Below are positions 31,329-59,910 of a stretch of DNA of 64,000 nucleotides, piece by piece. The stretch spans positions 806,001 through 870,000 of the forward strand of contig NW_027117347.1 of NCBI RefSeq assembly GCF_038025025.1, written 5' to 3'. The stretch's first letter is position 1. Each line of letters opens with the position of its first letter. The DNA is from Phyllosticta citribraziliensis (taxonomy: Eukaryota). Both the position numbers and the translations under genes were made by a program. The notes beneath the pieces are model-generated. The model saw nothing but the letters and a program-made list of their open reading frames with translations, did no database searches and was not told the origin of the DNA.

Positions 31329-31464
31329 TGACACTCAATTAATCGGGGCACAGCAGTTTCAGTAATCCACTTAATTAATGCTAAGTCTAAGGTCTATTAG
31401 GCTAGGATAACTAACTAAAGTACTACTCCTAATATTCTACTATATATATAACTTCTACCCTATA
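31329..31464 (-). repeat. 3' LTR of outer Gypsy element (136 bp)
   Basis: Colinear with 59775-59910, differing only by C>T/G>A transitions; adjacent to the PPT. Confidence 0.85.
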
Positions 31465-32953: not shown

Positions 32954-33376
32954 TATTATAATAGGCGTACACGCGCCTATATAAGTACTAGGGCCAGCAT
33001 GGATAAACCTAGTATTATATAGTTATAAGAAGTACAAGCCTCACCTTAGATAGCAGCCTGCTATAGCTCAGGCTAAAACCTATAGGCTGGCACCAGCTAC
33101 TATAGCCTAGCACTAGCTACTACAGCCCTAGGCAGATACTACATAACAGCCTATTAATACCTTACCTTTATAACTCACCTAATAATAACTAAGGACCCTT
33201 ATATAAAGGATAAGAGATAGAATAGTATAAAGAAAGGACTAGGAAATATATAGGTAGTAAGTATCTTTTATATTTTATTCTTTTAACTTATTAGATTTAA
33301 TAGAGATATATATATATTCTCTAGTAGTTTACCTTTAGCCCTTACCTATATAATAAGAAATCTATAAGTTATAATA
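32954..33376 (+). repeat. 5' LTR chromovirus copy 1
   Basis: Matches the three other 423-bp copies, with transition differences. Confidence 0.92.
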
Positions 33377-36300
33377 GATATAAAAGATTATTCTAAGTTT
33401 TAGCTCTATCCTACTTCTTTACCTATAAAGGTATTATAATATTTGACCTAAGTAATATTATATGCAGCTATAGTCTTATATAAGACTACTTATTACTTTT
33501 CCCTAGTAAACCTAAGTTATCTTTATTAGGCGCATTAGTATCATCTAAGGACTAAGGAGTATTAAGTATATATTAACTATAGAAGTCTTTAGTTAAGGCT
33601 ATAGGGCAGTATATAAATATCTAGGAGGCATCCTATCTATAACCTGCTTAAGGGATATTCTAAGTAGAAGACTATAAAGACAGTATGGCTAAGAATAAAG
33701 CTAATATATCTAGTACTACTAAAGGTATTAGTACTAGTTAATTAACCTAATAAGATTCGTATAAAGGAACTAAAGATTTATATAATACTAGATACTTATT
33801 AAATAATAATAAGAGAGGACCTACCCCTATTCTCCTATATAATTTCTACTTAGTCCTAGTAGTAGAGGTAAAAGAATGTACCTAAGACCTAGGGTCAACT
33901 TGTACTATTTAAGCTCTAGTTATAGAGGCGTTTATAAAGGTACCGCGCTTAGATATTAATTAATTTAAATCTAAGATTATATCCTTAAATAAGTCTTAAG
34001 TATAGTAGTAACTAAACTATATATAAAGGCAGAACTAGGCTCTTAAGTAAATACTCTTAAACTATACTAATAGACTAAGGGAAGCCTTAAGGGAAGGATA
34101 TATTAGGCCCTCTTTATTAGCTTAGTACCTAAGACCTATTACCCTCTCTTAAGATCCTTCTACTAGTAGAGTAATAAGGACTCTTAGACCTCCTCTAACC
34201 TATATAAGGGAAACTACTACTAAAACCTCTACTTTATCTTTAAGTAGTAAGAAATACTAAAGTAGTAAGGTTCCTAATCCTCCTCTTCTTACTAATAGAG
34301 AAGACCCCTTATATAAATACTAGACCCTCCTTATATAAAATAAAATTAAATAAAACCACGATTACTTTACTAAGGATATAGTAGAGGAGACTAAATAGAA
34401 TATTACAGGTTATATTATTTCCTATATTAGTAGAGAAGTCTTATATTACCTAACTCCTTTTCTTACTTCTTATATAAAGGCTAATAAAGTTACTCTAGAT
34501 AAGGATATCTTTAAATTCCTAGATAACCTCCTCTAGAGTCTATATAAATATAAGGATATAAAGAAGTAGTTATACTCTCTTATATACTATATTCCTATAG
34601 ACCTTTAGAAGTTTTAATTAAACTTTATATAATTGGCCTTAGACGCAGATCTTCTCTAGGAATAGTAGAAAGAGGACTTTTATAATATAATAGATCCTCT
34701 CCTTTAAACCTATATAGTTACTATAGAGTAAGATAAGGATGTCAACTTTTATAAGTACCTCTAATAAGCCTACCCTATTACTTAAAGTCTTAGTAACTAC
34801 TATTCTAATTATAGAAAACTAATACTCATATCATGTGAGGATTAAGTAAAGAAGAGATAATAAGAATAAGTAAAGATAACTACCTTAAGTAGTATAAGTA
34901 CTTTATCTTCTAGTTATACCTAGGCGCGATCTATATCTAGGGCTCCCTTATACAATATAACCTATAAAGGTAAAGTAGAAGTCTATATAGAGATTAGACT
35001 ATATAATTACTACAGCTAGTTTAGCTATTTATAGAGATAATACCTATAACCTAAGATAAAGGTAATAGAGTTAGTTAAAGAAGAAAGCGCTAAAGATATC
35101 TATATAAATAAAGGAGATTAGTCTTTATTAGAAAATAATAAGACCTAGGTAAAGTCTCCTACTATAGGTCTAAACTTAGAGTAATACACATTAAAGGTTC
35201 TTATATAAATCTTAGTTACTTTATTAGAGGTATACCCTTTACTATATAAACCTTAATTATATCTAATAGCCGCGCCTTAGAAATTCATGCCCTAGCTAAT
35301 ACTAGTACTAGTAGTATAAGTTTTATTTACCCTAAGCTACTACTAACTCTCTAGTCTATAGGTGCTGTAAAAAAGAGAATAATAGGTAAAGGGCTTAATA
35401 TTACTAGGTTTAACTAATATATAAATAAGAAAGTTAATTTTTACTTTTATCTTTAACTCTATTTCTAAGATTAAATGGTTTCTACTTATACTTTTATTTA
35501 TAATATTAGCCGTAATAACATGATTCTTAGGTAATAGTTTTTTAACTAGCATGATGTCCTTCTAGACTATAAATAATATAAACTAGTCTAGAGATAGCTA
35601 CTAGTTAACTAGTCTTTTTAGCATCTTTTATAACTACTAAAAATCTCTGTGTAAAGTAAAGAACTATAGAAAGAATACTAAGTAGATATAGACTATAGAG
35701 ATAAAAAATTTAATAAATACCTTCTTCCCTCTATATAGGTTATTAAGGGAATTAAATTCTAAACTTAAGATGTATTTAAGCTTTCTATTTATAAAATATA
35801 AGTTATACTAATAGAGATCTATACTATCAACCTTATATAAGTCTAAGCAGCTATTAAAGATAAGGAAACTAAGGAATTACTAGCTTCTAAGCTACTAGCT
35901 GCTTATAAGGAATTTTAAGATGTGTTTTCTAAAATAGAGTCTAATAAGCTACTACCCTATTATATAGGAGTTGATTATAAAATATCTCTTATATATAATA
36001 GTCTACTAGAGCTTCTGCCTAGTCCTCTCTATAGAATGTCTCTAGAGCAGCTTAAGGCTATAAAAGAGTATATTATTAAGAACCTTTAGAAAGGCTTTAT
36101 TACTAAGAGCTTTACCACCTATACTTCTCCTATTCTTATAGTAAAAAAGCCTAGTAGGGGATAGAGATTTTATATAGACTACTAATAGCTTAATAAATAA
36201 ACTACTAAGGATTCACACCCCCTCCCTCTTATTATAGAGTTACTTTAGTATATTAGAAAGGGCAATATTTATACTAAGCTTAATATTTAATAAGCTTTCT

Positions 36301-38999
36301 ACCGCATCTATCTTACTAAGGATTCTAAAGATAAAACCACTTTCTATATAAGATATAGGTTATTTAAATACTGTATCTTACCTTTTAGATTAAGTAATAG
36401 ACTGGTAGCCTTTTAATATTTTATTAACTAGGTTCTCTTTAAGTATTTAGATAATTTTGTTATGGCTTTTATAGACAATATGCTTATTATCTCTAAAGAC
36501 CCTATAGAGCATAAGGAACAAGTAAAAAAAGTACTAGTAAGACTATAAAAAGCAGGACTATAGGTAGATTTAAAGAAGAGTAAGTTTTTAGTTACTTATA
36601 TAAAGTTCCTTAGATATATCGTTTCTATAGAAGGCATTTAGATAGACCTAGATAAAGTAGAACCTATATAAAACTAGCTAATACCTAAAACCCTTAAAGC
36701 TCTTTAATCCTTCCTAGGTTTCTATAATTTCTACTGATAATTTCTCCCTAACTATAGATAAATTAGCTGACTATTAGAGAAACTATACTCTAAGGTAAAA
36801 TAGTAACAACTAGGACCCCTAGAAGAAGAGGTAATTTAGTAACTTAAGAAGCTAATATATAGTAATATACTCCTAGCTAACTATGACCCTACTCTTAACA
36901 CTTATATAGAGACTAATATAAGTAATAGAGTTACTATAGGCGTTTTAATGCAGCTCTAATAACCTTTATATAATTAGAAACTAGTAGCCTTCTACTCTAA
37001 GGTAATAGCTAATATAGAACTTTATTATAGAATTTTAGATAAAGAACTACTAGCTATTAAGAATAGACTAGAAGAATAGAGACTAATACTTATTAGCCTT
37101 AAAAAACCTTTTCTTATAATTATAGACTATTAGGTATTAGAGTACTACTCTACTAAACGACAACTTAATTAATAATAAGCTAGATAGTCTAAGTTTTTTA
37201 TAGAATTCTATATATAATTCTCTTATTAACTAGGAAAGGAAAATATCATTACTAATTATCTTACTTAAAAATAAGAAGACCTAAAGACTTAGAAAGAAAA
37301 AGTAAAAGCTATATAAGAGATATGTCTTATCCTACTAGAGACTATTATCCCTCTTTCTATTTTAGAATAAGAACTTCCTCCTCTAGTATTATTTTTAGAT
37401 AAACTCCTCTACATAAACTAGGAAGATTCTAAATTAGAACTCTAGAAATAGAAAGCCCTCTTAAAGGACCTTAAATAAAGAAATAGTTAGGAACTAAAGG
37501 ATGGTCTTTTACTATAATATAGTATACTCTTTATACTAGATTATAACAACCTCCGCACAAGAACGCTTAATACTTTATATACTATCTATATAACTGCCCA
37601 TTCTAGTATTATAAAGATGCAAAAACTCCTTAAGTAATATTACTATTAGCCAGCTATAAATCGCACGATTAATATTTATAGGTAAGGATGCCATATTTAC
37701 TACTAAATAAAAGAGTTTTATAATAAAGACCTAGGCCTTCTATAACCCCTAGAGATTCCTACTTAACCCTAGTAACACCTAGCTATAGATTTTAAAGAGA
37801 TACCTAAAGACTAAAAAGGCTATAATGCAATTCTAGTTATTATAGACTAGTTAAGTTAAAGAACCTTTAGCTTGCCTTATATAAAGAAGATTAATACTAA
37901 AGGAGTCTCTAGGCTCTTTTATAAATATATCTACTATATTTATAGAAACCCTAAGTCTATCCTATCTAACTAAGGCCCTTAGTTCATCTTAGTATTTATA
38001 AATAAACTATATAAGCTGACTAGTATAGAGCAGCATTTTAACTCATCCTACTACTCTTAGACTAATAGTATTATAGAGATTATTAATTAGCATCTTATAT
38101 AAAGATTAAGACCTTTTATTAATTACTTTTAGAATAATTAGTCTAATCTTCTACTATTAATAGACCTCACACAAGTAACACTTCCTTATAAAGCTACTAG
38201 ACTTTTACCTTTTAAGATTAAGTTAGGATATTCCCCTTAATTATACTATAACTAGTAATAAAGAACTAAAACCCCCTAGTAACTAGAGAAAATAGCTCGC
38301 ATAGTAGTATAAATACTATAAAAGAGAAGATAAGAAGCTTTTAAATTTATAAAGAATCTTATTCTTAAATCCTAAGAGCATATATACTAATAAGCTAATA
38401 AATACCGTCGCGCGCTAGACTTTATAGTTAGAGATTATATCTATATTAAGAAAATAGGATGGTCTACTAATTAGCTAAACCTTAAATTAGACTTTCCTAA
38501 TACTAGACCTTTTAAGATTATAGGAATAGAAGGACCCTCCTATATCCTTAATCTTCCCTTATATATAAAGATAGTCAACCTTTTTTATACTAATAGGCTA
38601 TATAAGGCCGAAATAGAACAGCTTCCTAGTTAGGAATATACTAAACCTAAACCTAAGATTATTTAAGATGAGCCTAAGTGGGAAGTAGACTATATTTAAG
38701 CTAGTTAAGTCTTATATAGGAAGCTTTAATACTAAGTTAAATAGACTAGATATAACTAAGATGACTAGTAGTATAATATAAGTTCTTTTAGTAGTATGCT
38801 ATAGAAAATTAAAGAATTCTACTCATTATACCCTATTATAGCAGGACTACTAAAAAATCTAGAAAAATAGAAGGCTACCTTCCTTTAAGAAGAACTATAG
38901 ATTAAAATAGAAAGTAATAATAAAACAAGTTACTTAGGCCTATAGTAAATATTATAAAGATATAGAAAGTAGACTAATTAGTTTACTATCTACTCTTAT

Positions 39000-40700
39000 A
39001 TAAATACTATTAATCTTAACTTCTACTCTCTAGTCTCTCCTTTTTACTACTTATTCCCTACTATCCTCTTCTTTAATTTCTACCCTTTACTTCTTCCCTT
39101 TTCCCTTCTTCTTATTATAATAGTTATTATATAAGACTGTCTCCTCTAGATCCTCTAGCTTATTAGGCAGGATGTTCTACTTAGCTAAAGCCTAATTAGT
39201 TTAATCCTCTAACCTAGCTTAGTAGTATAAGTTCTAGAACTCCTCTATATAAATTTTATCTTCACGCCTCTTATAATAAGCAGGCAGCTTGGTACCCTTT
39301 AAGTTACTAATAGTATAGTCTAAGTTACCTATACCCTAAAGGTAGTTGGCGCAGCGGCCCTATAAGAAACTAGGCAGGTGGTAATAACTAATAAACGCGC
39401 GAGTGTTAGTGTTATTATAATACTTAGTACAGCTAATAGGGTTATTAATTCTAGTATACTAGATAAGAAAAGCATCGCGCGAGCTAGCTTAAGTTTTAAC
39501 TAATAAGTAGTTAAATTGCTAAGTAGAAACTATAATATGTAAGTGAGGTATGCTGTTACCTAAGGCCAAGATGCGTTTAGTATACTCTTATACTTTAGAA
39601 CTACTAAGGCGCGCCTATATAGTTAGTTAGATAAGAATCCCTTATATTAGTAAGATAAACTTACTTGCGCGATACTCTCTATATTCTTATAAGGAATATA
39701 AAGCGTTAACTTAAAGTCCTACTTAATAGGTGCCTTATTAGAGCTAACTGGTAATACTATAATGCAAATCTTACTGTTGCTACTATTATATGAAGTAGTA
39801 GGCAGTAAGTACTTAGCTACTAGAACCTAATAAGCTATAGGATTATAATAATAGCGCATATAAGTAGGCTCTTTACCTTCTTCCTCTAAAACAGGCTGCG
39901 CGACAGTAAACTAGCGGTAATATAGTATAATGTGCTAGTTAGTAGCAGGCTATATAGCTATAGATGATAAACCTCGCGTAATAACTAATAATACTAATTA
40001 AGTAGAACCTGATACTATAGTATGCTATAGGTAAAGCAACAAGCCTGTAGCTGTTCCTAGCTAAATAAGTAAAGCCTAGCCTAACTAAGTCTTTATATAA
40101 GTATCCTCCTCTATAATTATATTAGTTGGCAAGATGGGACGATAAAGCAGTAAAACCTAGATATATAATGCTACTTAATAGCCTAGATAACAATTAGTAA
40201 TAGTCTAAAGAGATAGAATTAAAGTTTACTTACCTTAGAACTCTATATAATAGTCCTTATAGATACTGCCAGCTAAAACAGCTCTCTAAGCAAGCAGCGA
40301 CTATAATAGATTATAAATAACGCTATATAATAACGACTTAATACTGTAACTCTTATATAATAGTAATAAGTCCTAATAGACTAGACTATAATAAGCAGCA
40401 GACGTATTAAGCGCACGGCGGCTAGGAATGTCTACTTTACTATTAGTAGGGTATAAATTATTTAAATTATTAGAACCTTCACGCGCGACAGTTAGTTTAC
40501 CAGATTATAGCTAAATTAGACTAGGGCAACAATATACTTTAATAGGGAGCTTTAGATATAGCTAAGTAAGATAGTAACCTTCTATAGGTCGCGCAGTAAA
40601 AGAGATAGTAATAGAAAGAGATAGTATAGTAGTAGACCTAGACTAATAATTATACTTTATAACTATACAGAATGCTTAAATTACTAAATTACCGCCGTTA
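39000..40700 (-). pseudogene. RIP-mutated antisense accessory ORF of chromovirus copy 1 with Cys-rich DUF3716-like motif (boundaries approximate)
   Basis: One minus frame read over ~39300-39660 has only TAA/TAG stops (RIP products of CAA/CAG/TGG) and gives DAFLIQ.TG...CTKC...RAF..CYHLPGF..GRCANC.W......C after de-RIP. Confidence 0.6.
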
Positions 40701-40777
40701 TATATTATAAGTCTGCGCCTATATAAGCGCCTATAGCTACTAATTCCTATAATTTTAGCTTCTCTTTAGAGGGGGCA

Positions 40778-41200
40778 TGTCACAATAGGCATATATATAC
40801 CTATATAAGTACTAGGGCTAGCATAGATAAACCTAGTATTATATAGTTATAGGAAGCACAAGCCTCACCTTAGGTAGTAGCCTACTATAGCTTAGGCTAA
40901 AACCTATAGGCTGGTACTAGCTACTACAGCCTGGCACTAGCTACTATAGCCCTAGGCAGATACTATATAATAGCCTATTAACACCTTACCTTTATAACTC
41001 ACCTAATAATAACTAAGGACCCTTATATAAAGGACAAGAGGTAGAACAGTATAAAGGAAGGACTAGGAAATATATAGGTAGTAAGTATCTTTTATATTTT
41101 ATTCTTTTAACTTATTAGATTTAATTAAGATATATATATATTTTCTAGCAGTTTACCTTTAGCCCTTACCTATATAATAAGAAATCTACAAGTTGTAACA
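40778..41200 (+). repeat. 3' LTR chromovirus copy 1
   Basis: Intact TG...CA termini, preceded by the PPT, followed by TSD CCTTT. Confidence 0.93.
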
Positions 41201-44200
41201 CCTTTTAAAGTAGTAGCTTCTTCTTTATAAGCTCCTTCCTCTACTCTAATATTAGGCTAGAGGTATAGTAGGATAACTATTATCTAGATATATATACTAG
41301 TATAGTACTAGTACTATTACTAAATTTAAATAGCTCTATTAGAGTAACTCTTATAGCCTTAAGAGAGATATTATTACTATCTATATTATTATTTATCTTA
41401 GGATTATACTTCTTTTTCTTATTAATACTAAAATACTATATATTATCTTCTATTCCTAAAGTTAGGGCTATTAGAGAAGTACTTAATTATATAGCTTAAA
41501 GACTACTACTAGTATAGTCTTTATCCTTTTATACTCTAGATCTATTAATACCTTTATCTTTCTTATTAATATACTTAGAGACTCTTACTACCTAAAGGTA
41601 GAGGTTATTAATAGTAAACTAGGGGTCTATCTTATTATCTAGTATAACTAGTCTATCTCCTATATATATAAAACCCTAGTAGTAGAGATTCTTATAGCTA
41701 TTATTATCTAAAAAGATAGTAGTATTATAATCTACTAATTTATTAGTAATACCTAATATTTAATTATTATCTCTTAGGACTTACTATTCTTTACTAGTAT
41801 CTAAGTTATACTACTTATTACTAATATTATAGTTAGATCTAGTATTATAATTAGATCTAGATTTTAAGTTATAACTATTAATACTATCCTTATAAGTAGA
41901 TAAGGTAGTTATATTCTTAATTATCTTTATAAAATCTAGCTATATATTAAGTAGTAATATAGATCTTATTAAGAGTTTCTTATTAGAAGGACTAAAGTTA
42001 TTAGGACTATTAAGATAAAGTAGATTATAATCTAGTATTTTCTTATATAGTTTACTACCTTTAATACTAATCTACTAGTTAATTAGGTCTATATACTCTT
42101 ATAGACCTTCCTACTCTTTACTCTTACTAGTAGTATTATAGTACTAATTATCTTCTTCTTTAATACTACTATTTATAGGAGACTCTTCTCTAGTATCTAG
42201 TATTATACCTTTCTATACTAGTAGTAATAGAATTATAGGAATACTAGATAGCTAAGGATATAGGTCTAGTAGTAGAAGGAGTATAGTATTAAGATAATAA
42301 GGTTATATAGTAGTAGAATTATAGGTTAAAGGGCTAATAATAAGGATAAAGGTAGCTATTATAAAAGATAATAGGTTTTAATATTAATAGGGAATTATCT
42401 ACTAGGTCTAATAGGGCTAACTCTTAGTTATATAGTATCTATCCCTTAAGGTATATAGTCCTAAGCTACTTAGTTATTATAAAGGTAGAGGGTTAATAGT
42501 ATTATAGTAGTAGAAGGTAAGGTAGTAGCTTTTATAACTAGCTAATCTTCTTCCTCTATAGTCCTTAATATATTATTATCTAATTTCTATTATTTACTAA
42601 ATTATCTTTCTTCTTTTATCTACTATACCTTATTAAAATCCTATCTCTTAAGAAATACCTCTCTTACTAACTAATAAATATACCTCTAGCTAGGAAATTA
42701 TCTAGTATACTACTCCTATTTCTTAATACTCCTATAGTTTACTTACTTACTAAAATTAATAACTTTAAGCTAATTACCTATTAACTCCCTTTTTCTAGCC
42801 TATTACTTAGTATAGGTTAAAATTAAAAATACCTAAATACCTAGAATATATAAATATAACTCTACTTAGTAGAGAAAGAGGGTAGCACCTAATCTATAGA
42901 CTAGAGATTTATTAAGTCTAAGCTATATAGCTTCTAGTATTTAGGATATACCTTATTATAGACTTTATTAGGAAACTCTATAATATTCTATAACTATTCC
43001 TTAGTAGATAGTCCTATCTATTATATTTTTAGCCTATCTACTTTATACTAGGTCTCTTTTTATAGTTGCTCTACTAATTTAGCCTATACTTTATTATTAT
43101 TAGCTAGTATTACTTACTACTATATTTAATTCTTAGTAGTAGTATCTATTATAGCCTTCTATCCTAGTAGTTAGTTATACTACTTATAAGTAATAAAGAC
43201 CTTAATATTATTAATATAGTATATACTAATAGGTAATTCTAAATAAAGGTTAGTTAATATAATAGACTAGTTTTTAAAGTATACCTATAATACCTAGTAT
43301 AGTTCTATCTACTATAGTTTAAGTTTCTTTCCTCTTTAATTATTAAGGGTATAGTATCTTAGTAATACTAAGTTACCTTATAGTAGGGGTAGCTACTATA
43401 TTATATCTTCTATCTATTAGGCTATCTTCTATTACTATACTAAGTACTTATTAAGTACCTATTCCTAAATCTTATTAAGCTATATAAGCTATACTTTAAA
43501 ATTAATAGCTACTATAGTCTTATCTACCTTAATATTATAGCTACTAGCTTTAAATATAGCTTAGATAGAATCTACTATAATTATAGATATTATATTAGGC
43601 TACTTATATTATTAAGGTTAAAATCTATAAAGAAGCTTATTAGATAAGAATCTATATATATAGGAAACTTATAAATTTAGTATATATATAATATTATTAA
43701 GGAGTATATTCTACTTATATATTTATTCTAATAATTCCTAAATATATTTAATAATAGTATACTATACTATCTTAATATAGGATTCTATAAGGCCTATAGA
43801 TTATAGATATCCTATATTACTATAGAGGTACTTAATCTTCTTTATATCTAGTAGACCTATAAAGTCCTTTCTATAGAAATATAAACTATTATCTATATAG
43901 GTTATCTATATCTAATTAATAGGCTTAATAATAGTATCTTCTAGATTCTTAATTATCTCTTTTACTATTACTCCTAATAATATATAAATCTAGACCTTCT
44001 TAGTAAAGTAGTTAACTATTATAAGGATATAATAATTACCTTATACTATAATAGAAGTTAGGGGTCCTAGGTAATCTAGAGTAACTAAATTAAGGGGTTA
44101 TAGTTATATAACTAGAATAGTTCCTACTAATAGTTAAAGAGGTCTAGTTAGTTAATATAAAGGGTATAATTAAGTATAGTCCTAGGTATTCTTTAAGTAA

Positions 44201-46466
44201 GTTAGCTAGTAGTAGTATCTAATTAACTTTACTAATATAGGGTTACTTCTAAAATAGCTATAAGAGTTATAGTATTTATATAATACCTTTAGTATATCTA
44301 GCTCTTTAATATACTAACTAAGTTTTCCCTTTTACTTTTTAAATATTAAGTAAGGTAGACTAGTCCTAGGCTTAATAAGGATAAAATACCTTATCTAGTA
44401 GTAGATTTTTCTTATATATATAGAATTTAAAGATATCCCCTTCTCTAACTTAAGTACTATATCTATTAGCTTATATTAGATAATATCTCTATACTAGTAG
44501 TCTAATATTTAGGGATCCTAATAGTCTAGTCTTCTAGTAATAGTATTATCTATAGTACCCCTATTAATAGTAAATACTTAATACTTAAAGCTATTATTAA
44601 AATTAAGCTTATTATATAGTTAGCTAATTTATAAAAGTCTATTAGCTACTATATTAACTTATCCTAGAATATACTAAATATCTAGATAGAATTTAGAAAG
44701 CCTATACTCCTATTATAAAATTCTACCTATTATATCTAGTAAGTTAATTATATTAATTAAGGTAATATAATTAGTATATACCTTAATAGGGAATTTTAAA
44801 CCTATAATAAGCTAATATACTTCTTTAAGGTACTAAACTAATACTAGTACTTCTAATTTAGTAGTCTTATATTATATTTTAGTATCTAATAGACTATAAC
44901 TTATAAATATTACTACCTCCTATTACTCTAGTAGTATAGCTAGTATAGATATACTAATAGGAACTATAGGAATTTAGAAGAGTATACCCCTTAATCTAGT
45001 CTTTAAAGTATTAATAGATAGGTAGTACTAGTATCTCTTATCTCTACCTACTAGTATAATATACTAGATTACTTCTTAGATCTTCTTAAATACCTATTAG
45101 TATAGCTTATACTATATAAACTCCTTAATAATATACTTCTTCTTATACTTCTTCCCCTTTTTTAACTTATTAACTAGAACTATCTCTATAATAAGAGTAG
45201 TTTTAAGGATTTTAATAAGGTTAGCTCTTTCTAGAATATAATAGTATAAGAAAGGTAGAATATCTATAAATTACTTTAATTTAACTTTATTATATAGAGG
45301 TACCTAGTTATAGAAGGCTTTAACCTTATTAATAGAAGGCTAGTAACTCTTAGGTATCTTCTAAAATCCTAGAACCTTAATAGTACTATAGAAGAACCTT
45401 AACTTTTTAGGATTTAAGGTTAGTTTAGCCTATACTATATAAGAAAAGTAAGCTTTATATAGAAAGTTATATAGGAAGTTAAAGATTACTACTCCTCTAA
45501 AAATATTATTAATAAAGTAATAGAATACTAGGAATCTAGATAACTATTAATTAAGAGGAGCTTTACTATATAGTCCTAGAATAAAACTAGTAACTAAGTC
45601 TATTAGCTTAGTATATATTACTAGAGTACTAGTTAGGCCTTAACCTATATATATATAGGTAAGCTAACTAAGAGTTAAGGTAAATATAGTCTTATATATA
45701 TTACTTAGAATAATAGGGACTGCCTAATATCTATTAGAATAATCTATAGTAAATATATACTTATACTATAACTAGCTAAGCTTATTAAGTATTAGCTTAA
45801 TTTACTTTATAGGATAAGTAGACTTCCTAGTTATATTATTAAGGGTATAGAAGATATAGACTATCTATAAATCTTTAGACTTCTTATATAGGAACTAGGT
45901 TTTAGTAGACTATTCTAATACTATATATTTTAATACTCTAGCCTTTACTAACTTAATAAGATTATTAGTCTACTAATACTCTTCTTCTAGAGTATATAGA
46001 GGTAGCTTTATAGTATAGGGCTTTACCTAAGTATATATTAGGATATAATATTTAATAAGGTTAGTATATAGTATATTCTAGATCTTCTATATAAATATAT
46101 TCTACTAAGTCTATAATATTATCCCTACCTTCTTTAATTACTATATATCCTATATTAGATCTCCTAAGATACTAGGGTATTTATCTAGCTAGTCTTATAA
46201 TACTATATTACTAGGAGGTTATTAGATTTTATATTAGAATTTATATAGATATTAGCTAATAGGGAACTAGTTCTAGATTATAAATATTAAAGTATCTTTA
46301 TTATTCTCTACTTCTATATAGAAAACTATAATAGTATTATTATACTATAAAAGTACTCTATTATAAATCTTATTAAAACTAATATCCTTTAGTAGTAATA
46401 CTAGGAGAAGCCTATATTAGAATACCCTTATTTTTCCCTTAATATTAAGATTAGAGAAGTAACCTT

Positions 46467-46889
46467 TATTATAATAGGTATATATATACCTATATAAGTA
46501 CTAGGGCCAGTATAGATAAACCTAGCATTGTGTAGTTATAGGAAGTATAAGCCTTACCTTAAGTAGTAGCCCGCTATAGCTTAGGCCGAAACCTGTAGGC
46601 TAGTACTAGCTACTACAGCCTAGTACCAGCCACTATAGCCTTAGGAAGATACCACGCAACAGCCTATTAATACCTTACCTTTATAACTTACCTAATAATA
46701 ACTAAGGACCCTTATATAAAGGATAAGAGGTAGAATAGTATAAAGGAAGGACTAGGAAATATATAAGTAGTAAGTATCTTTTATATTTTGTTCTTTTAAC
46801 TTATTAGATTTAATTAAGATATATATGTATTTTCTAGTAGTTTACCTTTAGCCCTTACCTGTGTAATAAGAAATCTATAAGTTATAATA
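46467..46889 (+). repeat. 5' LTR chromovirus copy 2
   Basis: 423-bp match to the other LTR copies. Confidence 0.92.
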
Positions 46890-49800
46890 GATATAAAAGA
46901 TTATTCTAAGTTTTAGCTCTATCCTACTTCTTTACCTATAAAGGTGTTATAATATTTAACCTAAGTAACGTCGTGCGCAGCTATAGTCTTATATAAGACT
47001 GCTTGTTACTTTTCCCTAGTAAACCTAAGTTATCTTTATTAGGCGCATTAGTGTCATCTAAGGACTAAGGAGTATTAAGTATATATTAACTATAGAAGTC
47101 TTTAGTTAAGGCTATAGGGTAGTATATAAATATTTAGGAGGTGTCCTATCTATAACCTACTTAAGGAACATTCTAAGTAGAAGACTATAAAGATAGTATA
47201 GCTAAGAATAAAGCCGACGCATCTAGTACTACTAAAGGTGTTAGTACTAGTTAATTAACTTAATAAGATTCGCGTAAAGAGACTAAAGATTTATATAATA
47301 CTAGATACTTATTAAATAATAATAAGAGAGGACCTACCCCTATTCTCCTATATAATTTCTACTTAGTCCTAGTAGTAGAGGTAAAAGAACATACCTAAGA
47401 CCTAGAGTTAACTTATACTATTTAAGCTCTAGTTATAGAGGTGTTTATAAAGGTACCGCGCTTAGATATTAATTAATTTAAATCTAAGATTACATCCTTA
47501 AATAAGTCTTAAGTGCAGCAGCAACTAAACTACACATAAAGGCAGAACTAGGCTCTTAAGTAAACGCTCTTAAACTATACTAATAGACTAAGGGAAGCCT
47601 TAAGGGAAGGATATATTAGGCCCTCTTTATTAGCTTAGCACCTAAGACCTATTACCCTCTCTTAAGATCCTTCTACTAGTAGAGTAATAAGGACTCTTAG
47701 ACCTCCTCTAACCTATATAAGGGAAACTACTACTAAAACCTCTACTTTATCTTTAAGTAGTAAGAAATACTAAAGTAGTAAGGTTCCTAATCCTCCTCTT
47801 CTTACTAATAGAGAAGACCCCTTATATAAATACTAGACCCTCCTTATATAAAATAAAATTAAATAAAACCACGATTACTTTACTAAGGATATAGTAGAGG
47901 AGACTAAATAGAATATTACAAGTTATATTATTTCCTATATTAGTAGAGAAGTCTTATATTACCTAACTCCTTTTCTTACTTCTTATATAAAGGCTAATAA
48001 AGTTACTCTAGATAAGGATATCTTTAAATTCCTAGATAACCTCCTCTAGAGTCTATATAAATATAAGGATATAAAAAAGTAGTTATACTCTCTTATATAC
48101 TATATTTCTATAGACCTTTAGAAGTTTTAATTAAACTTTATATAATTAGCCTTAGATGCAGATCTTCTCTAAGAATAGTAGAAAGAGGACTTTTATAATA
48201 TAATAGATCCTCTCCTTTAAACCTATATAGTTACTATAGAGTAAGATAAGGATATTAACTTTTATAAGTACCTCTAATAAGCCTACCCTATTACTTAAAG
48301 TCTTAGTAACTACTATTCTAATTATAGAAAACCAACGCTCACGTCACATAAGGATTAAGTAAAGAAGAGATAATAAGAATAAGTAAAGATAACTACCTTA
48401 GGCAGTATAAGTACTTTATCTTCTAGTTATACCTAGGCGCGATCTATATCTAGGGCTCCCTCACATAATCTAACCTATAAAGGCAAAGTAGAAGTCTATA
48501 TAGAGATTAGACCGTATAATTGCTATAGCTAGTTTGGCTATTTATAGAGATAATACCTATAACTAGAGATAAAGGTAATAGAGTTAGTTAAAGAAGAAAG
48601 TACTAAAGATATCTATATAAATAAAGGAGATTAGTCTTTATTAGAAAATAATAAGACCTAGGTGAAGTCTCCTACTATAGGTCTAAACTTAGAGTAATAT
48701 ATATTAAAGGTTCTTATATAAATCTTAGTTACTTTATTAGAGGTGTACCCTTTACTATATAAACCTTAATTATATCTAATAGCCGCGCCTTAGAAATTTG
48801 TGCCCTAGCTAATACTAGTACTAGTAGTATAAGTTTTATTTACCCTAAGCTACTACTAACTCTCTAGTCTATAGGTGCTATAAAAAAGAGAATAATAGGT
48901 AAAGGGCTTAATATTACTAGGTTTAACTAATATATAAATAAAAAAGTTAATTTTTACTTTTATCTTTAACTCTACTTCTAGGATTAAATAGTTTCTACTT
49001 ATACTTTTATTTATAATATTAGCCGCAATAACATGATTCTTAGATAATAGTTTTTTAACTAGCACGATATTCTTCTAGACTATAAATAATACAAACTAGT
49101 CTAGAGATAGCTACTAGTTAACTAATCCTTTTAGCATCTTTTACACCTACTAAAAGTCTCTATACAAAGCAATAAACCGCAGAAAGAACATTAAGTAGAT
49201 ATAGACTATAGAGATAAAAACTTTAATAAACGCCTTCTTCCCTTAGTATAGGTTATTAAGGGAATTAAATTTTAAACTTAAGATGCTTTTAAGCTTTCTA
49301 TCTATAAAATACAAGTTACGCTAATAGAGATCTATACTATTAACCTTATACAAGTTTAAGCGGCTCTTAAAGATAAAGAAACTAAGGAATTATTAGCTTC
49401 TAAGCTACTAGCTACTTATAAGGAATTTTAAGATGTATTTTCTAAAATAGAGTCTAATAAGCTACCACCATATCACATAGGAGTTAATCACAAAATATCT
49501 CTTATATATAATAGTCTACTAGAGCTTCTACCTAGCCCTCTCTATAGAATGTCTCTAGAGCAGCTTAAGGCTATAAAAGAGTATATTATTAAGAATATTT
49601 AGAAAGGCTTTATTATAGAGAGCTTTACTACCTATACTTCTCCTATTCTTATAGTAAAAAAGCCTAGTAGGGGATAGAGATTCTATATAGACTACTAATA
49701 GCTTAATAAATAAACTACTAAGGATTTACACCCCCTCCCTCTTATTATAGAGTTGCTTTAGCGCATTAGAAAGGGCAAGATTTATACTAAGCTTAATATT

Positions 49801-52499
49801 TAATAAGCTTTCTACCACATTTATCTTACTAAGGATTCTAAAGATAAAACCACCTTCTATATAAGATATAGGTTATTTAAATACTATGTCTTGCCGTTTA
49901 GATTAAGTAATAGACCTATAGCCTTTTAATATTTTATTAACCAGGTTCTCTTTAAGTATTTAGATGATTTTATTATAGCTTTTATAGATAACATACTTAT
50001 TATCTCTAAAAACCCTATAGAGCATAAGGAATAAGTAAAAAAAGTACTAGTAAGACTATAAAAAGTAGGACTATAGGTAGATTTAAAGAAGAGTAAGTTT
50101 TTAGTTACTTATATAAAGTTTCTTAGATATATCGTTTCTATAGAAGGCATTTAAATAGACCTAGATAAGGTAGAACCTATATAAAACTAGCTAATACTAA
50201 AAACTCTTAAAGCTCTTTAATCCTTCCTAGGTTTCTATAATTTCTACTAATAATTTCTCCCTAACTATAGATAAATTAGCCGGCTATTAGAGAAACTATA
50301 CTCTAAGGCAAAATAGTAACAACTAGGACCCCTAGAAGAAGAGGCAATTTAATAACTTAAGAAGCTAATATATAGTGACATACTTCTAGCTAATTATAAC
50401 CCTACTCTTGACACTTATATAGAGACTAATATAAGTAATAGAGTTACTACTAGCGTTTTAATACAGCTCTAGTAACCTTTATATAATTAGAAACTAGTAG
50501 CGTTCTACTCTAAGGCAATAGCAGACGCAGAACTTTATTATAGAATTTTAGATAAAGAACTACTAGCTATTAAGAATAGACTAGAAGAATAGAGACTAAT
50601 ACTTATTAGCCTTAAAAAACCTTTTCTTATAATTATAGACTATTAGGCGTTAGAGTACTACTCTACTAAATAACAACTTAATTAATAACAAGCTAGATAG
50701 TCTGAGTTTTTTATAGAATTCTATATACAATTCTTCTATTAACTAGAAAAGGAAAATATCATTACTAATTACCTTACTTAAAAATAAGAAGACCTAAAGA
50801 CTTAAAAAGAAAAAGTAAGGGCTATATAAGAGATATGCCTTATCCTACTAGAGACTATTATCCCTCTTTCTATTTTAGAATAAGAACTTCCTCCTCTAGT
50901 ATTATTTTTAGATAAACTCCTCTATATAAACTAGGAAGATTCTAAATTAGAACTCTAGAAATAGAAAGCCCTCTTAAAAGACCTTAAATAAAGAAATAGT
51001 TAGGAACTAAAAGATAGTCTTTTACTATAATATAGCACCCTCTTTATACCAGATTATAATAACCTCTGCATAAGAATGCTTAATGCTTTATATACTACCT
51101 ATATAACTGCCTATTCTAGTATTATAAAGATGCAAAAACTCCTTAAGCGACATTACTACTAGCTAGCTATAAATTATACGATTAATATTTACAGGCGAGG
51201 ATGCTATATTTACTACTAAATAAAAGAGTTTTATAATAAAGACCTAGGCCTTCTATAACCCCTAGAGATTCCTACTTAACCCTAGTAATACTTAGCTATA
51301 GATTTTAAAGAGATGCCTAAAGACTAAAAGGGCTATAATATAATCCTAGTTATTATAGACTAGTTAAGTTAAAGAACCTTTAGTTTACCTTATATAAAAA
51401 AGATTAATACTAAAGGAGTCTCTAGGCTCTTTTATAAATATATCTACTATATTTATAGAAACCCTAAGTCTATTCTATCTAACTAAGGCCCTTAGTTCAT
51501 CTCAGCATTTATAAATAAACTATATAAGCTAACTAGTATAGAGCAGTATTTTAACTCATCCTACTACTCTTAAACTAATAGTATTATAGAGATTATTAAT
51601 TAGCATCTTATATAAAGATTAAGACCTTTTATTAATTACTTTTAGAATAATTAGTCTAATCTTCTACTATTAATAGACCTTATATAAGTAACACTTCCCT
51701 ATAAAGCTACTAGACTTTTACCTTTTAAGATTAAGTTAGGATATTCCCCTTAAATATACTATAACTAGTAATAAAGAACTAAGACCCCCTAGCAACTAGA
51801 GAAGATGGCTTATATAGTAGTATAAATACTATAAAAGAGAAGATAAGAAGCTTTTAAATTTATAAAGAATCTTATTCTTAAATCCTAAGAGTATATATAC
51901 TAATAAGCTAATAAATACCGTCGCGCGCTAGACTTTATAGTTAGAGATTATATCTATATTAAGAAAACAGGATGGTCTACTAATTAGCTAAACCTTAAAT
52001 TAGACTTTCCTAATACTAGACCTTTTAAGATTATAGGAATAGAAGGATCCTTCTATATCCTTAATCTTCTCTTATATATAAAGATAGTTAACCTTTTCTA
52101 TACTAATAGGCTATATAAGGCTAAAATAGAACAGCTTCCTAGTTAGGAATATACTAAACCTAAACCTAAGATTATTTAAGATGAGCCTAAGTAGGAAGTA
52201 GACTATATTTAAGCTAGTTAAGTCTTATATAGGAAGCTTTAATACTAAGTTAAATAGACTAGATATAACTAAGATAACTAGTAGTATAATACAAGTTCTT
52301 TTAGCGGCGTGCTATAGAAAATTAAAGAATTCTACTTATTATACCCTATTATAGTAGGACTACTAAAAAATCTAGAAAAATAGAAGGCTGCCTTCCTCTA
52401 AGAAGAACTATAGATTAAAATAGAAAGTAATAATAAAATAAGTTACTTAGGCCTATAGTAAATATTATAAAGATATAGAAAGTAGACTAATTAGTTTAC

Positions 52500-54190
52500 T
52501 ATCTACCCTTATATAAATACTATTAATCTTAACTTCTACTCTCTAGTCTTTCCTTTTTATTACTTATTCCCTACTATCCCTTCTTTTACTTCCTTCCTTT
52601 TCCCTTCTTCTTATTATAATAGTTATTATATAAGACTATCTCCTCTAGATCCTCTAGCTTATTAGGTAGGATGTCCTACTTAGCTAAAGCCTAATTAGTT
52701 TAATCCTCTAACCTAGCTTAGTAGTATAAGTTCTAGAACTCCTCTATGTAAATTTTATCTTCATGCCTCTTATAATAAGCAGGCGGCTTGGCACCCTTTA
52801 AGTTATTTATAGTATAGTTAAGGTTGCCTATACCCTAAAGGTAGTTGGCGCAGCAGCCCTATAAGAAACTAGGCAGGTAGTAACAACTAATAAACGCGCG
52901 AGTATTAGTATTATTATAATACTTAGTATAGCTAATAGGGTTATTAATTCTAGTATACTAGATAAGAAAAGCATCGCGTGAGCTAGCTTAAGTTTTAACT
53001 AATAAGTAGTTAAATTGCTAAGCAGAAACTATAATGTGTAAGTAAGGCATGCTATTACCTAAGGCTAAGATGTACTTAGTGCACTCTTATACTTTAGAAC
53101 TACTAAGGCGCGCCTATATAGTTAGTTAGATAAGAATCCCTTATATTAGTAAGATAAACTTACTCGCGCGACACTCTCTATATTCTTATAAGGGATATAA
53201 AGTATTAACTTAAAGTCCTACTTAATAGGTACCTTATTAGAGCTAACTAGTAATACTATAACGCGAATCTTACTATTGCTGCTATTATATAAAGTAGCAG
53301 GTAGTAAGTACTTAGCTGCTAGAACCTAATAAGCTGTAGGATTATAATAATAGTATATATAAGTAGGCTCTTTATCTTCTTCCTCTAAAACAGGCTGTAT
53401 GATAGTAAACCGGCAGCAATATAGCATAATAGGCTGGTTAGTAGCAGGCTATATAGCTGTAGATAATGAACCTCGCGCGATAACTAATAATACTAATTAA
53501 GTAGAACCTAATACTATAGTATGCTATAGGTAAAGTAATAAGCCTGTAGCTATTTCTAGCTAAATAAGTAAAGCCTGGCCTAACTAAGTCTTTATATAAG
53601 TGTCCTCCTCTACAATTATATTAGTTAGCAAGATAGGACGATAAAGTAGTAAAACCTAGATATATAATACTACTTAATGGCCTAGATAATAATTAGTAAT
53701 AGTTAGAGATAGAATTAAAGTTTACTTACCTTAGGACTCTATATAATAGTCCTTATAGATACTACTAGCTAAAACAGCTCTTTAAGTGAGCAGTAACTAT
53801 AATAGATTATAAATGACACTATATAATAACAACTTAATACTATAACTCTTATATAATAGTAATAAGTCCTAATAGACCAGACTATAATAAGCAGCAGATA
53901 TATTAAGTATATAGTAGCTAGGAATGTCTGCTTTACTATTAGTAGGGTATAAATTATTTAAATTATTAGAACCTTTACACGCGATAGTTAGTTTACTAGA
54001 TCATGGCTAAATTAGACTAGGATAACAATATACTTTAATAGGGAGCTTTAGATATAGCTAAGTAAGATGGCGACCTTCTATAGGTCGCGCAGTAAAAGAG
54101 ATAGTAATAGAAAGAGATGGTATAGTAGTAGACCTAGACTAACAATTATACTACGCATATAGAACGCTTAAATTGCCAAATTACTACTAT
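52500..54190 (-). pseudogene. RIP-mutated antisense accessory ORF of chromovirus copy 2 (DUF3716-like motif ~52810-52985; boundaries approximate)
   Basis: Homologous to 39000-40700; retains TGT (Cys) at ~52883-52885 where copy 1 has TAT. Confidence 0.58.
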
Positions 54191-54269
54191 TATATATTAT
54201 AAGTCTGCGCCTATATAAGCGCCTATAGCTGCTAATTCCTATAATTTCAGCTTCTCTTTAGGGGGGGCA

Positions 54270-54692
54270 TGTCATAATAGGCGTATATATACCTATATAA
54301 GTACCAGGGCCAGTATAGACAAACCTAGTATTATACAGTTATAGGAAGCATGAGCCTCACCTTAGGTAGCAGCCTACTATAGCTTAGGCTGAAACCTGTA
54401 GGCTAGCACCAGCTACTACAGCCTAGTACCAGCTACTATAGCCTTAGGAAGATACTATATAACAGCCTATTAATACCTTACCTTTATAACTTACCTAATA
54501 ATAACTAAGGACCCTTATATAAAGGATAAGAGGTAGAATAGTATAAAGGAAGGACTAGGAAATATATAGGTAGTAAGTATCTTTTATATTTTATTCTTTT
54601 AACTTATTAGATTTAATTAAGATATATATACATTCTCTAGTAGTTTGCCTTTAGCCCTTACCTATATAACAAGAAATCTGTGAGTCGTAATA
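54270..54692 (+). repeat. 3' LTR chromovirus copy 2
   Basis: Starts TGTCATA after the PPT; followed by TSD ACCTT. Confidence 0.92.
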
Positions 54693-57600
54693 ACCTTCTT
54701 AGAACCTCTTATTAGGCTTCTCTCTATTATAGACCTTAGTAGTATAAGTATACTCTATTAGCTCCTAGTACTTAATATATACTTATTTAATTAGATATTT
54801 AGAATTAAGGTACTTATAATTCCTAACTTATAAGATTTTATAATATTAAAGTCTCTTCTAATAGTATTATTTATAGGCTAGCTAATAGTTATCCTATAAT
54901 TTATTAAGAGGTTAACTATTATACTATTTCTCTTTTACTATAAATAAGTATAGGTCTAGGTAGTTTTCCTATAGGGTAATATTAATTAGGTATTTTAATA
55001 GTAATAGTAGCTCTCTATTCTAATCTATCTTTAAGAGATACTACTAGGTTAGGACTAAGGCTACTACTACTATATATACTACTATTATTAGGTTATCTTA
55101 CTTATATATAGGAAGTCTAACTAGTAGGAGATTCCTACTTACTATAACTATAGTAGATATATCTATTACTTTAATCTCTATACCTAGTATAGGTTATTAA
55201 GTCTTAATAATATTACCTAGGGAATAGTAATAGATAGTAGCCTTCTTATTAATTTCTACTAAGCTAGTTATAGTAGCTAGGGATTCTTTACTCTCTATAG
55301 AGTTTACTTTTATAGTTATAAGTCTTACTAACTTAAGGGATACTACTATAGGTAGGCTAGTAAATTTATAATACTTAACTATAAAGGGATACTATATAGA
55401 GGGTAGTTAAGATACCTTAGGGTATAATATTATTAATTTAGTATTACTTACTAGGTCTTACTCCTTAATACTAACTACTTCTAGCTTAATAGTTAGTAAT
55501 ATATATTTCCTAAATATCTAGAATAGTAAGTATCTTCTAGATTACTATTATTTAAGTTATAGTTCTTAGTATCTTTACTTATATTATAGCTAAAACTATT
55601 AGGACTAAAGTCTAACTTAGAAAGTAACTTTAATAAATATATCTCTACTTCTTCTAGAGTAATATTATTATTATCTCCCTTCTCCTTATTACTACTATCC
55701 TCCTTAAGTAGGTCTAGTAGTTTATATAGAGGTAGGAATATTAATATATTATCTAACTTATTACTATTAAAAAAGAATAGCTTAATATTTATCTTCTCCT
55801 TAATAATTATCTCTAGTAGGTTCTAGGGAAATATAGTATAGTTTCTAAGAATATTAACTAGATAATTATCTAGTCCCTTAATAGTTAATATTTATACCTT
55901 ATAATTCTTATTTACTATAGTATAGTATAGCTAAGGTTAACTAAGTAAAATACTCTATAGGTTAGCTTAATTAGTAACCTATACCTAGACTAAGAAGTCT
56001 ATATTTATAACTATAATAATAAAGTAAATAAAGTAATATAAGTAATTAGGGCCCTTAGTAGTATATATCTAATAGAGTATATATACTATATAGACTAGTA
56101 GCTATATTATCTAGACTATCTCTTTAAGGATAAGATTTACTATAGTACCTATATTAATAAGGACTTCTCTTACTCTCTAGAGATAGAAATCTAGATTATT
56201 ACTTAATTAGTATATAATAATAGTAATATAGAAGTTCTTAATATATAGGTTACTAATACTATTATTATAGAATAATATAGTTTCCTTATAGAATTAGATA
56301 TTTATAGCCTTATTTAGAACCTTCTTCTTCTTCCTAGTCCTCTTAATAGCTAGGCCCTTTACTAATAAGGTGTGTACCTTAGGTAATAATTAAAAGAGGT
56401 ACTTTATATAGAAGTCTAGGAGTAATTATATCTTACTAATTACCTTTATAAAGTTATAAGTAGGCTAGTTTAGTATTATCTAGATAATTAGTAGTTCTAT
56501 AGCCTTCTTCTTCTTCTTAAGCTTACTTATATCTACTAGCTTATCTTTATTAAGCTATATAGGACTTAAATAGCTAGAACTAGTAGTAGATTAGAATAGT
56601 ATCTTTAGAGGATTAGTAAATTATATATACTTAGCTAGTATAGGTTAAGGTATCTAGTTCTACTACTAGCTAGCTAGCTACTAGGTAGTACTATAGCCTA
56701 GAGGTTAGAATCTTAGTAGTAATAATAGGCCTAAGTTACCCTAGAATATTAACTTCCTACTAGCTAATAAGAAGGGTAGCTAGTCTTATAGGTAGGACTT
56801 CTATATAGATAGAATAGATAGAGTACCTATTTAGGCCCTTATAAAGGAGTTACTAGTAGCTAACTACTAAGGCTTCTAAGGAGTCTAGCTATTTAATACC
56901 TACTAGTTATCTAGTACCTATAGTAGAAATAGGTTATATTACTTAGATTAGAGAACTTTATTATTAATATTACTTATATTATTAACCCTAGCTCTCTTTA
57001 TAGTATAGACTTCTTCTTTAGTTAATTCTCTTTAAGCCTCTATAGTAAAACTCTATTAAGTAGCTCTTCCTAGACTATATTAACTCCTAACTACTATACT
57101 TTATAAAAGTAGTAGTTTAAGATATTATAGATCTTAGGTAATACTACTCTACTTTATATTCTATATAGGAAGTACTCCTCTATAAAGTAGGTATTACTAG
57201 TATTAGGATTCTACTAGCTATTATAGGTTTCTAGAAATTTATATAATAATTAGTTATTATTCTAGTACTATTTAGCTTTATACCTATACCTCTCTTTATA
57301 TATTCTCCTAGTATATAGATACTTATTACTATAGTAGTAGTTAGGTTTATCTTTTTAGTAATTAAAATATAGTAGCTCTTAGTAAGCTTTCTAGAGTTAT
57401 ATAAACTAATTTAGGTACTATTACTATTAAGTTAACTAAGTATCTTATACTAAGAACTATTCCCTTAGATACTACTATTAAGTACTTAGTTAATAGGAGT
57501 TAGTCTACTAACTACTTAGCTAGAAAGAATTAGATTACTAGTATAAATTACTCTACTAAGGATTTAGGCCTAGTTACTAGCCTTAGCTACCTTAGAATTA

Positions 57601-59774: not shown

Positions 59775-59910
59775 TAATACTTAATTAATTAGAGTATAGT
59801 AGTTTTAGTAATCTACTTAATTAATACTAAGTCTAAGGTCTATTAGGCTAGGATGACTAACTAAAGTGCTACTCCTAATATTCTGCTATATATATAACTT
59901 CTGCCCCATA
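59775..59910 (-). repeat. 5' LTR of outer Gypsy element (136 bp)
   Basis: Direct repeat of 31329-31464; marks the sharp return from AT-rich to GC-rich DNA. Confidence 0.85.

Follow-up and report, generated by a model that had tools for sequence, protein, structure and literature searches.

A Mobile Spacer between pol and the 3' LTR of a RIP-Mutated Phyllosticta Chromovirus: A Candidate Antisense Gene for a Six-Cysteine Protein

Within a 64,000-nucleotide stretch of the Phyllosticta citribraziliensis genome (contig NW_027117347.1, positions 806,001 to 870,000; this whole stretch is hereafter the window), we analyzed two copies of a chromovirus, a Ty3/gypsy long terminal repeat (LTR) retrotransposon, in which some 1.8 kb of DNA separates the pol end from the polypurine tract (PPT). 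On balance we incline, if only slightly, to the view that this spacer is what repeat-induced point mutation (RIP) has left of an antisense, intron-bearing accessory gene, convergent with pol, for a protein with six cysteines. The layout is already known from Boty elements, and by analogy the window family appears to be a further case of that known class.

Results and Discussion

The Spacer Moves with the Element

The two copies have the same orientation and LTRs of about 420 nt. Their features, in window coordinates, are the following:

32954..41200, plus strand: copy 1, an LTR retrotransposon of 8247 nt (LTR family), with the target-site duplication (TSD) CCTTT at both ends
32954..33376, plus strand: 5' LTR of copy 1, ~420 nt; RIP has altered the terminal TG..CA to TA..
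35781..~38900, plus strand: pol (reverse transcriptase, RNase H, integrase and a chromodomain-like C-terminus), a single frame of 1040 codons, 95 of them RIP stops
38950..40767, no strand assigned: spacer of about 1.8 kb, from the pol end to the PPT
40768..40777, plus strand: PPT-like AGAGGGGGCA, directly before the TGTCAC with which the 3' LTR starts
40778..41200, plus strand: 3' LTR of copy 1, starting with TGTCAC
46467..54692, plus strand: copy 2, with the TSD ACCTT at its ends

The PPT-like string can also be given as AGAGGGGG at 40768-40775, immediately 5' of the TGTCAC of the 3' LTR. A reading made earlier from the letters of the window (the sequence-only reading) had noted the interval of about 1.8 kb between the pol end and the PPT in both copies, and our measurements agree (pol ends near 38900 and the PPT is at 40768). 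The same reading had called the copies nested, which has to be abandoned: neither lies inside the other, and they have separate 5-bp duplications, CCTTT and ACCTT. Because the two insertions, both of which contain the spacer, carry different TSDs, the spacer must have moved with the element at least two times.

Contigs from public sequencing runs also extend over the spacer. When it was divided into 30 bins, 29 were covered by run X5 and 24 each by runs X7 and X9, three runs with other organism labels. These contigs were short and, among the 40 of 233 differing places that were listed, differed from the window almost only by transitions, with no intact copy.

Among related loci, a 1.8-kb spacer is the exception. 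We examined 25 of them, 13 of which had a recognizable LTR pair; in 12 of these 13, the 3' LTR started between about -40 and +200 nt from the end of the pol match, leaving no such spacer, and in the thirteenth, L070, pol was followed by another pol fragment, again with no spacer. The L070 fragment (13790-16100) is a partial RNase H-integrase-chromodomain segment lying right after pol, either nested or in tandem.

A Cys/Tyr Motif Spread over Two Mutated Copies

On the minus strand of copy 1, the frame with codons at 39614-3k reads SSSKV*EYTKRILALG...SRDAFLI*YTRINNPISCTKYYNNTNTRAFISYYHLPSFL*GRCANYL*GIGNLDY. We could reproduce, in both copies, the minus-strand reading as the sequence-only reading had written it, as well as the Lys/Glu-rich stretch that it mentioned, which we found at ~39110-39010. 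The frame holds a six-position motif, C-x2-[Y]-x11-[Y/C]-x10-C-x2-[Y]-x8-[Y]:

39315..39431, minus strand: motif of copy 1, from the readings of both copies
52814..52930, minus strand: the same Cys/Tyr motif in copy 2, from a pattern scan and the reading

RIP turns TGY codons into TAY. Since it does so, and since a CxxC of the integrase has likewise become CxxY in these copies, a tyrosine of the motif can legitimately be read as a former cysteine. The first motif Cys is TGT in copy 1 and TAT in copy 2, while the third is TAT in copy 1 and TGT in copy 2, so that the TGT/TAT complementation between copies, claimed earlier for one position, is real and works in both directions. The fourth motif Cys is TGC in both copies, and the remaining three positions are TAY in both. 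Three cysteines are therefore directly visible across the copies, and the three TAY positions would have been cysteines as well. Copy 2 owes an extra Cys (GCCAN; GCC) to a C-to-T change in what was CGC.

A generic six-[CY] spacing occurred five times in ~57,000 codon positions, and two of the five occurrences were the target copies. The other three fell in Tyr runs and had no real Cys and 3-8 stops, as against 2-3 real Cys and 2 stops at the target. Presence of the motif within the 1.8-kb spacer is thus unlikely to be pure chance.

The integrase provides an internal example of how RIP appears to erase metal ligands. In its zinc region (37545-37700), aligned by eye to a consensus of intact relatives, CxxC has become CxxY and the first His has become Tyr, in both copies.

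Candidate Exons and Introns

The minus strand of the spacer also contains intron-like signals, which in copy 1 delimit the following candidate features:

39087..39614, minus strand: candidate last exon, 176 codons with 12 TAA/TAG, from the frame reading
39615..39664, minus strand: candidate intron of 50 nt, GTAAGT...CTAAC...TAG, identical in copy 2
39665..39859, minus strand: candidate upstream exon, with an ATG at 39859-39857 (ATA in copy 2), from the frame reading
40183..40233, minus strand: second intron-like signal, 51 nt; in copy 2 it has 48 nt and an intact CTAAC, at 53729

Under a strict definition (GTAAGT, then CTAAC, then YAG, 40-90 nt overall), the 28.4-kb AT-rich block in which the copies lie contained no such signal on the plus strand and four on the minus strand, three of the four within the two spacers. 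The intron at 39664-39615 joins ...ESIAQ to ARLSSSKV... in phase 0, and a codon log-odds score trained on the RIPped pol switched its best minus-strand frame at the candidate intron, albeit with a weak discriminating power (+0.05 per codon in frame vs about -0.1 out of frame). Just upstream of this intron, the stretch 39907-39665, somewhat wider than the candidate exon, shows 2 stops in 81 codons. It is uncertain whether the second intron-like signal (40233-40183) belongs to the gene, and membership is equally uncertain for the frame further upstream, which is fairly open (10 stops in 180 codons).

At the other end, a TAA (39089-39087) probably terminates the candidate gene. Just one indel of notable size, 14 nt long and starting 4 nt past this TAA, was seen in the candidate 3' region; such a position fits untranslated sequence and hence a true stop at 39089-39087. 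The same 14-nt deletion was found in a contig of run X9, which implies that both variants existed as subfamilies before these insertions. The indel corresponds to 39070-39083 in copy 1, vs copy 2 near 52584. From the pol end (~38900-38950), the candidate stop at 39087 is roughly 140-190 nt away.

From these features we infer a coding capacity and a tentative model with at least two exons, in which translation would start at the ATG at 39859, run for 65 codons to a donor at 39665 and, after the 50-nt intron, continue in the last exon (39614-39087). The predicted product, about 240 residues long (65 + ~175 codons), would comprise a six-Cys module, probably metal-binding, followed by a helical charged region and a basic KKKGKGKK cluster. 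Being antisense to the genomic RNA of the element, a gene of this kind could keep its introns through retrotransposition. Its protein would need a transcript of its own, with a start in the spacer beside the 3' LTR, and the likeliest role of the protein would be that of a nuclear nucleic-acid-binding factor modulating the element's own expression or integration. The roles suggested by the sequence-only reading were anti-silencing, targeting or captured cargo.

An Intact Antisense Gene in a Related Chromovirus

A search with the pol reading of one copy retrieved unmutated relatives (E ~1e-170), and an alignment of five of these was used to fetch 80 metagenome loci. Among the fetched loci, L001 was chosen as the closest intact relative with flanks. 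It is a 7.2-kb metagenome contig (1-7226) with a pol GC content of 0.49, and with gag and pol both open it looks intact. Between its pol stop (4398) and a PPT-like GGAGGAGGGGGG near 5795, it carries a gene on the opposite strand:

5319-5059, 5006-4758 and 4711-4505 of L001, minus strand: the three exons of the antisense gene, between the pol stop and the PPT

The two introns, of 52 and 46 nt, show GTAAGT, CTGAC/CTAAC and CAG, and every junction is in phase 0. The encoded protein, 238 amino acids long and uninterrupted, has near its N-terminus a six-Cys module, C-x2-C-x10-C-x9-C-x2-C-x6-C, with a charged, helical region and basic clusters after it. The stops of this gene and of pol are 107 nt apart.

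L001 and the window elements thus have in common a pol with a chromodomain, a gene (a candidate one in the window) lying between the pol stop and the PPT and convergent with pol, and short fungal-type introns. They are also alike in having a six-Cys module of similar spacing, ahead of a helical charged region with basic clusters. On the other hand, their pol clades differ, and the module is near the N-terminus in L001 but would be further in under the tentative model for the window. What L001 establishes is that such a gene can occur in chromoviruses of this group, a statement about the group rather than about the identity of the gene in the window. The intact L001 gene is also the most useful by-product of this analysis, being open to direct study.

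Some observations on L001 stand apart from this comparison. The contig is circularly permuted (pol, spacer, single LTR, gag), an arrangement to be expected if the assembly ran through collapsed LTRs, or if the source was a tandem pair or a circle with one LTR. An AlphaFold2 model of exon 1, computed without an alignment, had a mean pLDDT of 53.6 and was not used further. A tblastx match of the L001 tail to locus L064 was dismissed, as it fell in a low-complexity gag region.

Weighing the Antisense Gene

The sequence-only reading had stressed that the minus-strand frame is interrupted only by TAA and TAG. This is true of the frame and yet uninformative, as RIP has all but eliminated TGA, whatever the frame: each of the six frames of the block held 4-16 TGA per 9000 codons vs ~1000 TAA plus TAG. 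For the annotation of RIPped DNA in general, this means that stops of the TAA/TAG type only, or a missing Pfam match, say nothing about past coding.

Several other results weigh against the antisense gene. The 12 stops in 176 codons of the candidate last exon (95 in 1040 for the pol frame) are ordinary for this DNA, since 724 of 5576 block windows of 176 codons hold 13 stops or fewer; stop density is at background, and the openness of the frame is consequently no evidence for coding. The motif pattern was defined after the target had been seen, which makes its support modest, and retention of Cys is not special by itself, the block containing 26 clusters of at least three real Cys codons within 40 codons. 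We guessed one sequencing run to be RNA; among its six short contigs over the region, one, of uncertain nature, crosses the candidate intron unspliced. The nearest pol relatives of the window (L070, L057 and L038) have no spacer wherever the place is visible.

Homology searches point the same way. When the L001 antisense exons were compared by tblastn with the 80 loci and the window, and the window frames with the loci, nothing rose above noise, and hhalign of the two-copy window profile with the L001 exon gave a probability of 0.1. Because L001 belongs to another pol clade than the window, its gene may be an independent acquisition and would then be no evidence of homology. A word-indexed protein search with the window exon returned 14 candidates, none at E <=1, and a HMMER profile search of 1.84 billion proteins returned one match, at E = 4e-4, to a bacterial repeat protein. 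We judged the latter spurious. Likewise, the hits from a search of PDB sequences, to Elongator protein 5 (E 0.04-0.08) and a GNAT protein (1.3), were treated as noise. A RIP-tolerant Smith-Waterman comparison, in which the best ancestral codon was taken at every step, proved too permissive (median score 90, top 122, with the target outside the top 15).

The antisense accessory gene proposed by the sequence-only reading thus keeps its plausibility, through the mobile spacer, the minus-strand intron signals and the L001 parallel, while having to do with no homologue and an ordinary stop density.

The first alternative is that the spacer was always non-coding, i.e., a long untranslated or regulatory tail or some decayed filler, and that the motif and the intron strings are chance products of a Tyr-rich, TA-rich RIPped DNA. 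Tyrosine indeed makes up 9.4-10% of every frame, the three further six-[CY] matches come from nothing but Tyr runs, and, besides the unremarkable number of stops, no homologue or Pfam domain was found in any frame (a Pfam scan of all six spacer frames at E <=1 gave 0 families). However, those chance matches lack the real Cys residues of the target and contain more stops, the intron-like signals are biased by both strand and location, and the in-phase switch of frame coincides with the candidate intron. Furthermore, the related and intact L001 does possess a real gene in this position, and 12 of the 13 LTR-paired relatives need only 0-200 nt here, so that 1.8 kb wants a reason. We consider a non-coding spacer rather unlikely.

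According to the second alternative, an ancestor of the family picked up part of a host gene or of some other mobile element, which has been carried since as cargo devoid of any role. The patchy occurrence of the spacer among relatives would agree with this, introns suggest a gene of cellular type, and genes of the DUF3716 type are reported to travel in other transposons (PMC8232023; here and below, papers cited by PMC number are quoted from the part of their text that was available). Yet no terminal repeats or boundaries of an inserted element were detected inside the spacer, the orientation and the tail-to-tail placement near the pol stop are as in L001, and the spacer was kept in two independent insertions, with parts of it occurring in contigs of other runs. 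Roleless cargo therefore appears improbable, and an antisense gene belonging to the element is the reading that we retain.

Is the Protein a DUF3716 Member?

The sequence-only reading had likened the motif to the DUF3716 family (PF12511), which would make the antisense protein a zinc module for DNA binding that the element has captured. As restored, the motif (C-x2-C, F-x2-C, G-x-C-x-N-C and a final C) does resemble what we take to be the DUF3716 pattern, and the expression F..[CY].{6,10}G.[CY].N[CY] matched only at the target in ~57,000 codon positions. No profile match, however, supports the assignment. The PF12511 check, run on the raw readings of both copies at E <=10, gave 0 families, Pfam found as little in the short domain stretch and in upstream frames, and the scan of all six spacer frames at E <=1 was negative for PF12511 too; in addition, three of the six motif cysteines are reconstructed.

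These window negatives carry little weight, because the chromodomain was missed in the same RIPped DNA. As a control, L001 scored 27.6 bits for Chromo, 49 for SH3_Tf2-1, 49.3 for rve and 59.8 for Integrase_H2C2, whereas the RIPped window loses the first two and retains about 17 bits for the others. The result for the intact L001 exon is a different matter: it matched no Pfam family, PF12511 included, at E <=1, and this is a real negative. A word-indexed search with the same exon gave two candidates, none at E <=10, and no match was obtained among PDB sequences.

In the ESM Atlas, where scores below 0.9 are leads only by the tool's own calibration, the closest neighbors of the L001 module were unnamed Ascomycota clusters (0.88-0.87). 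Of the clusters that bear a family, the nearest (score 0.78, 138 shared features) has PF12511 on 28% of its members, and nine of the ten best family-bearing matches belong to a common family or clan. A lean toward DUF3716 at 0.78, below 0.9, is weak.

We also scanned 890 kb of fetched loci with regular expressions for DUF3716-like or six-Cys patterns, and retrieved only L001, one Zn2Cys6-like site and unrelated matches. The Zn2Cys6-type site, C-x2-C-x6-C-x9-C-x2-C-x6-C, is on the minus strand of locus L063 (15054-15143), about 8 kb from a chromovirus pol, and probably belongs to an ordinary fungal transcription-factor gene.

Published cases lend the DUF3716 idea some context. The DUF3716 genes REP9-1 and REP9-2 ride in an IS3EU DNA transposon of Zymoseptoria (PMC8232023), which means that genes of this family are already known to travel with another fungal transposon. 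A Fusarium protein with DUF3716, PSC58, is described as the orthologue of Neurospora NCU05718 (PMC10776026), a protein that binds double-strand TTAGGG directly, without an annotated DNA-binding domain (PMC4650311).

DUF3716 proteins and the putative window product would be alike in having a Cys-rich module, in occurring in Pezizomycotina and in being sometimes transposon-borne, besides the resemblance of motifs; they are unlike in that the known cases are found in a DNA transposon or among cellular genes rather than in an LTR retrotransposon, and in the lack of a profile match here. In the literature searched by the names DUF3716 and PF12511 only, we found no report of the domain in an LTR retrotransposon. 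Altogether, membership in DUF3716 seems doubtful to us. Were the module a DUF3716 domain, DNA binding would be the natural guess, and an orphan domain would gain a retrotransposon context beside that of a DNA transposon, together with a testable DNA-binding role.

A broader scenario can be built on this link, in which chromoviruses of filamentous ascomycetes repeatedly gained intron-bearing antisense genes for small six-Cys, DUF3716-type DNA-binding proteins that steer integration, or control the element's own transcription, together with the chromodomain, in a manner comparable to the antisense regulators of retroviruses. The window family and L001, being in different pol clades, would then be two such cases. 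We hold this scenario to be quite unlikely.

Comparison with Known Antisense Genes

The brtn gene of Boty-like elements was reportedly treated by Zhao et al. (2011, Virology 417:248), a paper known to us via its citing papers only. According to the latter, Boty-like chromoviruses of Botrytis cinerea and Sclerotinia contain brtn downstream of pol, ahead of the 3' LTR and in antisense orientation (PMC7264820, PMC4227169, PMC8365987). The features listed for a brtn-bearing element are gag, zinc knuckle, reverse transcriptase, integrase and CHROMO (PMC4227169), and a Monilinia transcript matched BRTN (PMC5987419). Boty resembles the window family as a Pezizomycotina chromovirus with an extra opposite-strand gene (a putative one in the window) between pol and the 3' LTR. 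It differs in that the window copies are RIP-dead, and the likeness, taken from descriptions only, is one of position and orientation.

Some plant Ty3/gypsy elements, namely RIRE2, Grande, Retand and PvRetro13, have antisense extra open reading frames (ORFs) between pol and the 3' LTR as well (PMC7264820, PMC11963269). Here too, position and orientation are alike, and each family conserves its ORF; these are plant elements, mostly of non-chromovirus lineages, and their proteins are presumably unrelated.

In human T-cell leukemia virus type 1 (HTLV-1), an antisense transcript from the 3' LTR side encodes HBZ, a regulator of the element. We take this antisense-encoded regulator as a working analogy only, as HTLV-1 is a vertebrate retrovirus, HBZ is a basic leucine zipper protein and no relationship is implied.

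There is almost no functional knowledge about the antisense accessory genes of LTR retrotransposons. If the gene in the window is real, its family would be the second fungal LTR-retrotransposon example of such a gene, and L001 the third.

Identity of the Element and the RIPped Block

The element shows the Ty3/gypsy hallmarks, i.e., reverse transcriptase, RNase H and integrase in gypsy order, LTRs, a TSD and a PPT. In Pfam scans of the RIPped frames, with stops read as X, RVT_1 matched with 57.8 bits in copy 1 and 67.6 bits in copy 2, and RT_RNaseH matched pol with 46.2 bits. The matches to rve (17 bits) and Integrase_H2C2 (17.5 bits, the latter in copy 1 only) were both under the Pfam cut-offs, and neither Chromo (PF00385) nor SH3_Tf2-1 was detected by Pfam in the RIPped pol of either copy. 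The window pol nevertheless aligns by tblastn across the stretch that corresponds to Chromo in L001, where the domain scores 27.6 bits against a cut-off of 25.1. To judge from this alignment, calling the element a chromovirus is reasonable despite PF00385 being undetected in the RIPped copies.

A quick pol tree grouped the window with L070, L038 and L057 (SH-aLRT support, a Shimodaira-Hasegawa-like approximate likelihood ratio, of 99), and L001 with L003 (100). The window branch is long (0.99) and deviant in composition, which makes its placement unsure. No pol relatives were found in the viral contigs searched.

Both copies lie in an AT-rich block at ~31-60 kb of the window, with a GC content of 0.24-0.30, between gene-rich flanks with a GC content of 0.51-0.60. 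In the block, the dinucleotide ratios TA/AT and (CA+TG)/(AC+GT) are 1.79 and 0.19, respectively, compared with 0.52 and 1.27 in the flank; by this signature the block is heavily RIP-like. Between the spacers of copies 1 and 2 we counted 142 transitions, 4 transversions and 37 gap columns, and such a predominance of transitions is as expected for RIP after insertion. Both copies in the window are dead.

After each copy there is a further stretch of ~5.3 kb (41199-46464 and 54693-59910) with a GC content of 0.24-0.29. The two stretches have no mutual similarity, and Pfam scans of their six frames gave 0 families. The whole RIPped block is flanked by a 132-nt direct repeat with 89% identity (31333-31464 and 59779-59910), which may mark the termini of an older element, or of a duplicated segment, that received both chromovirus insertions.

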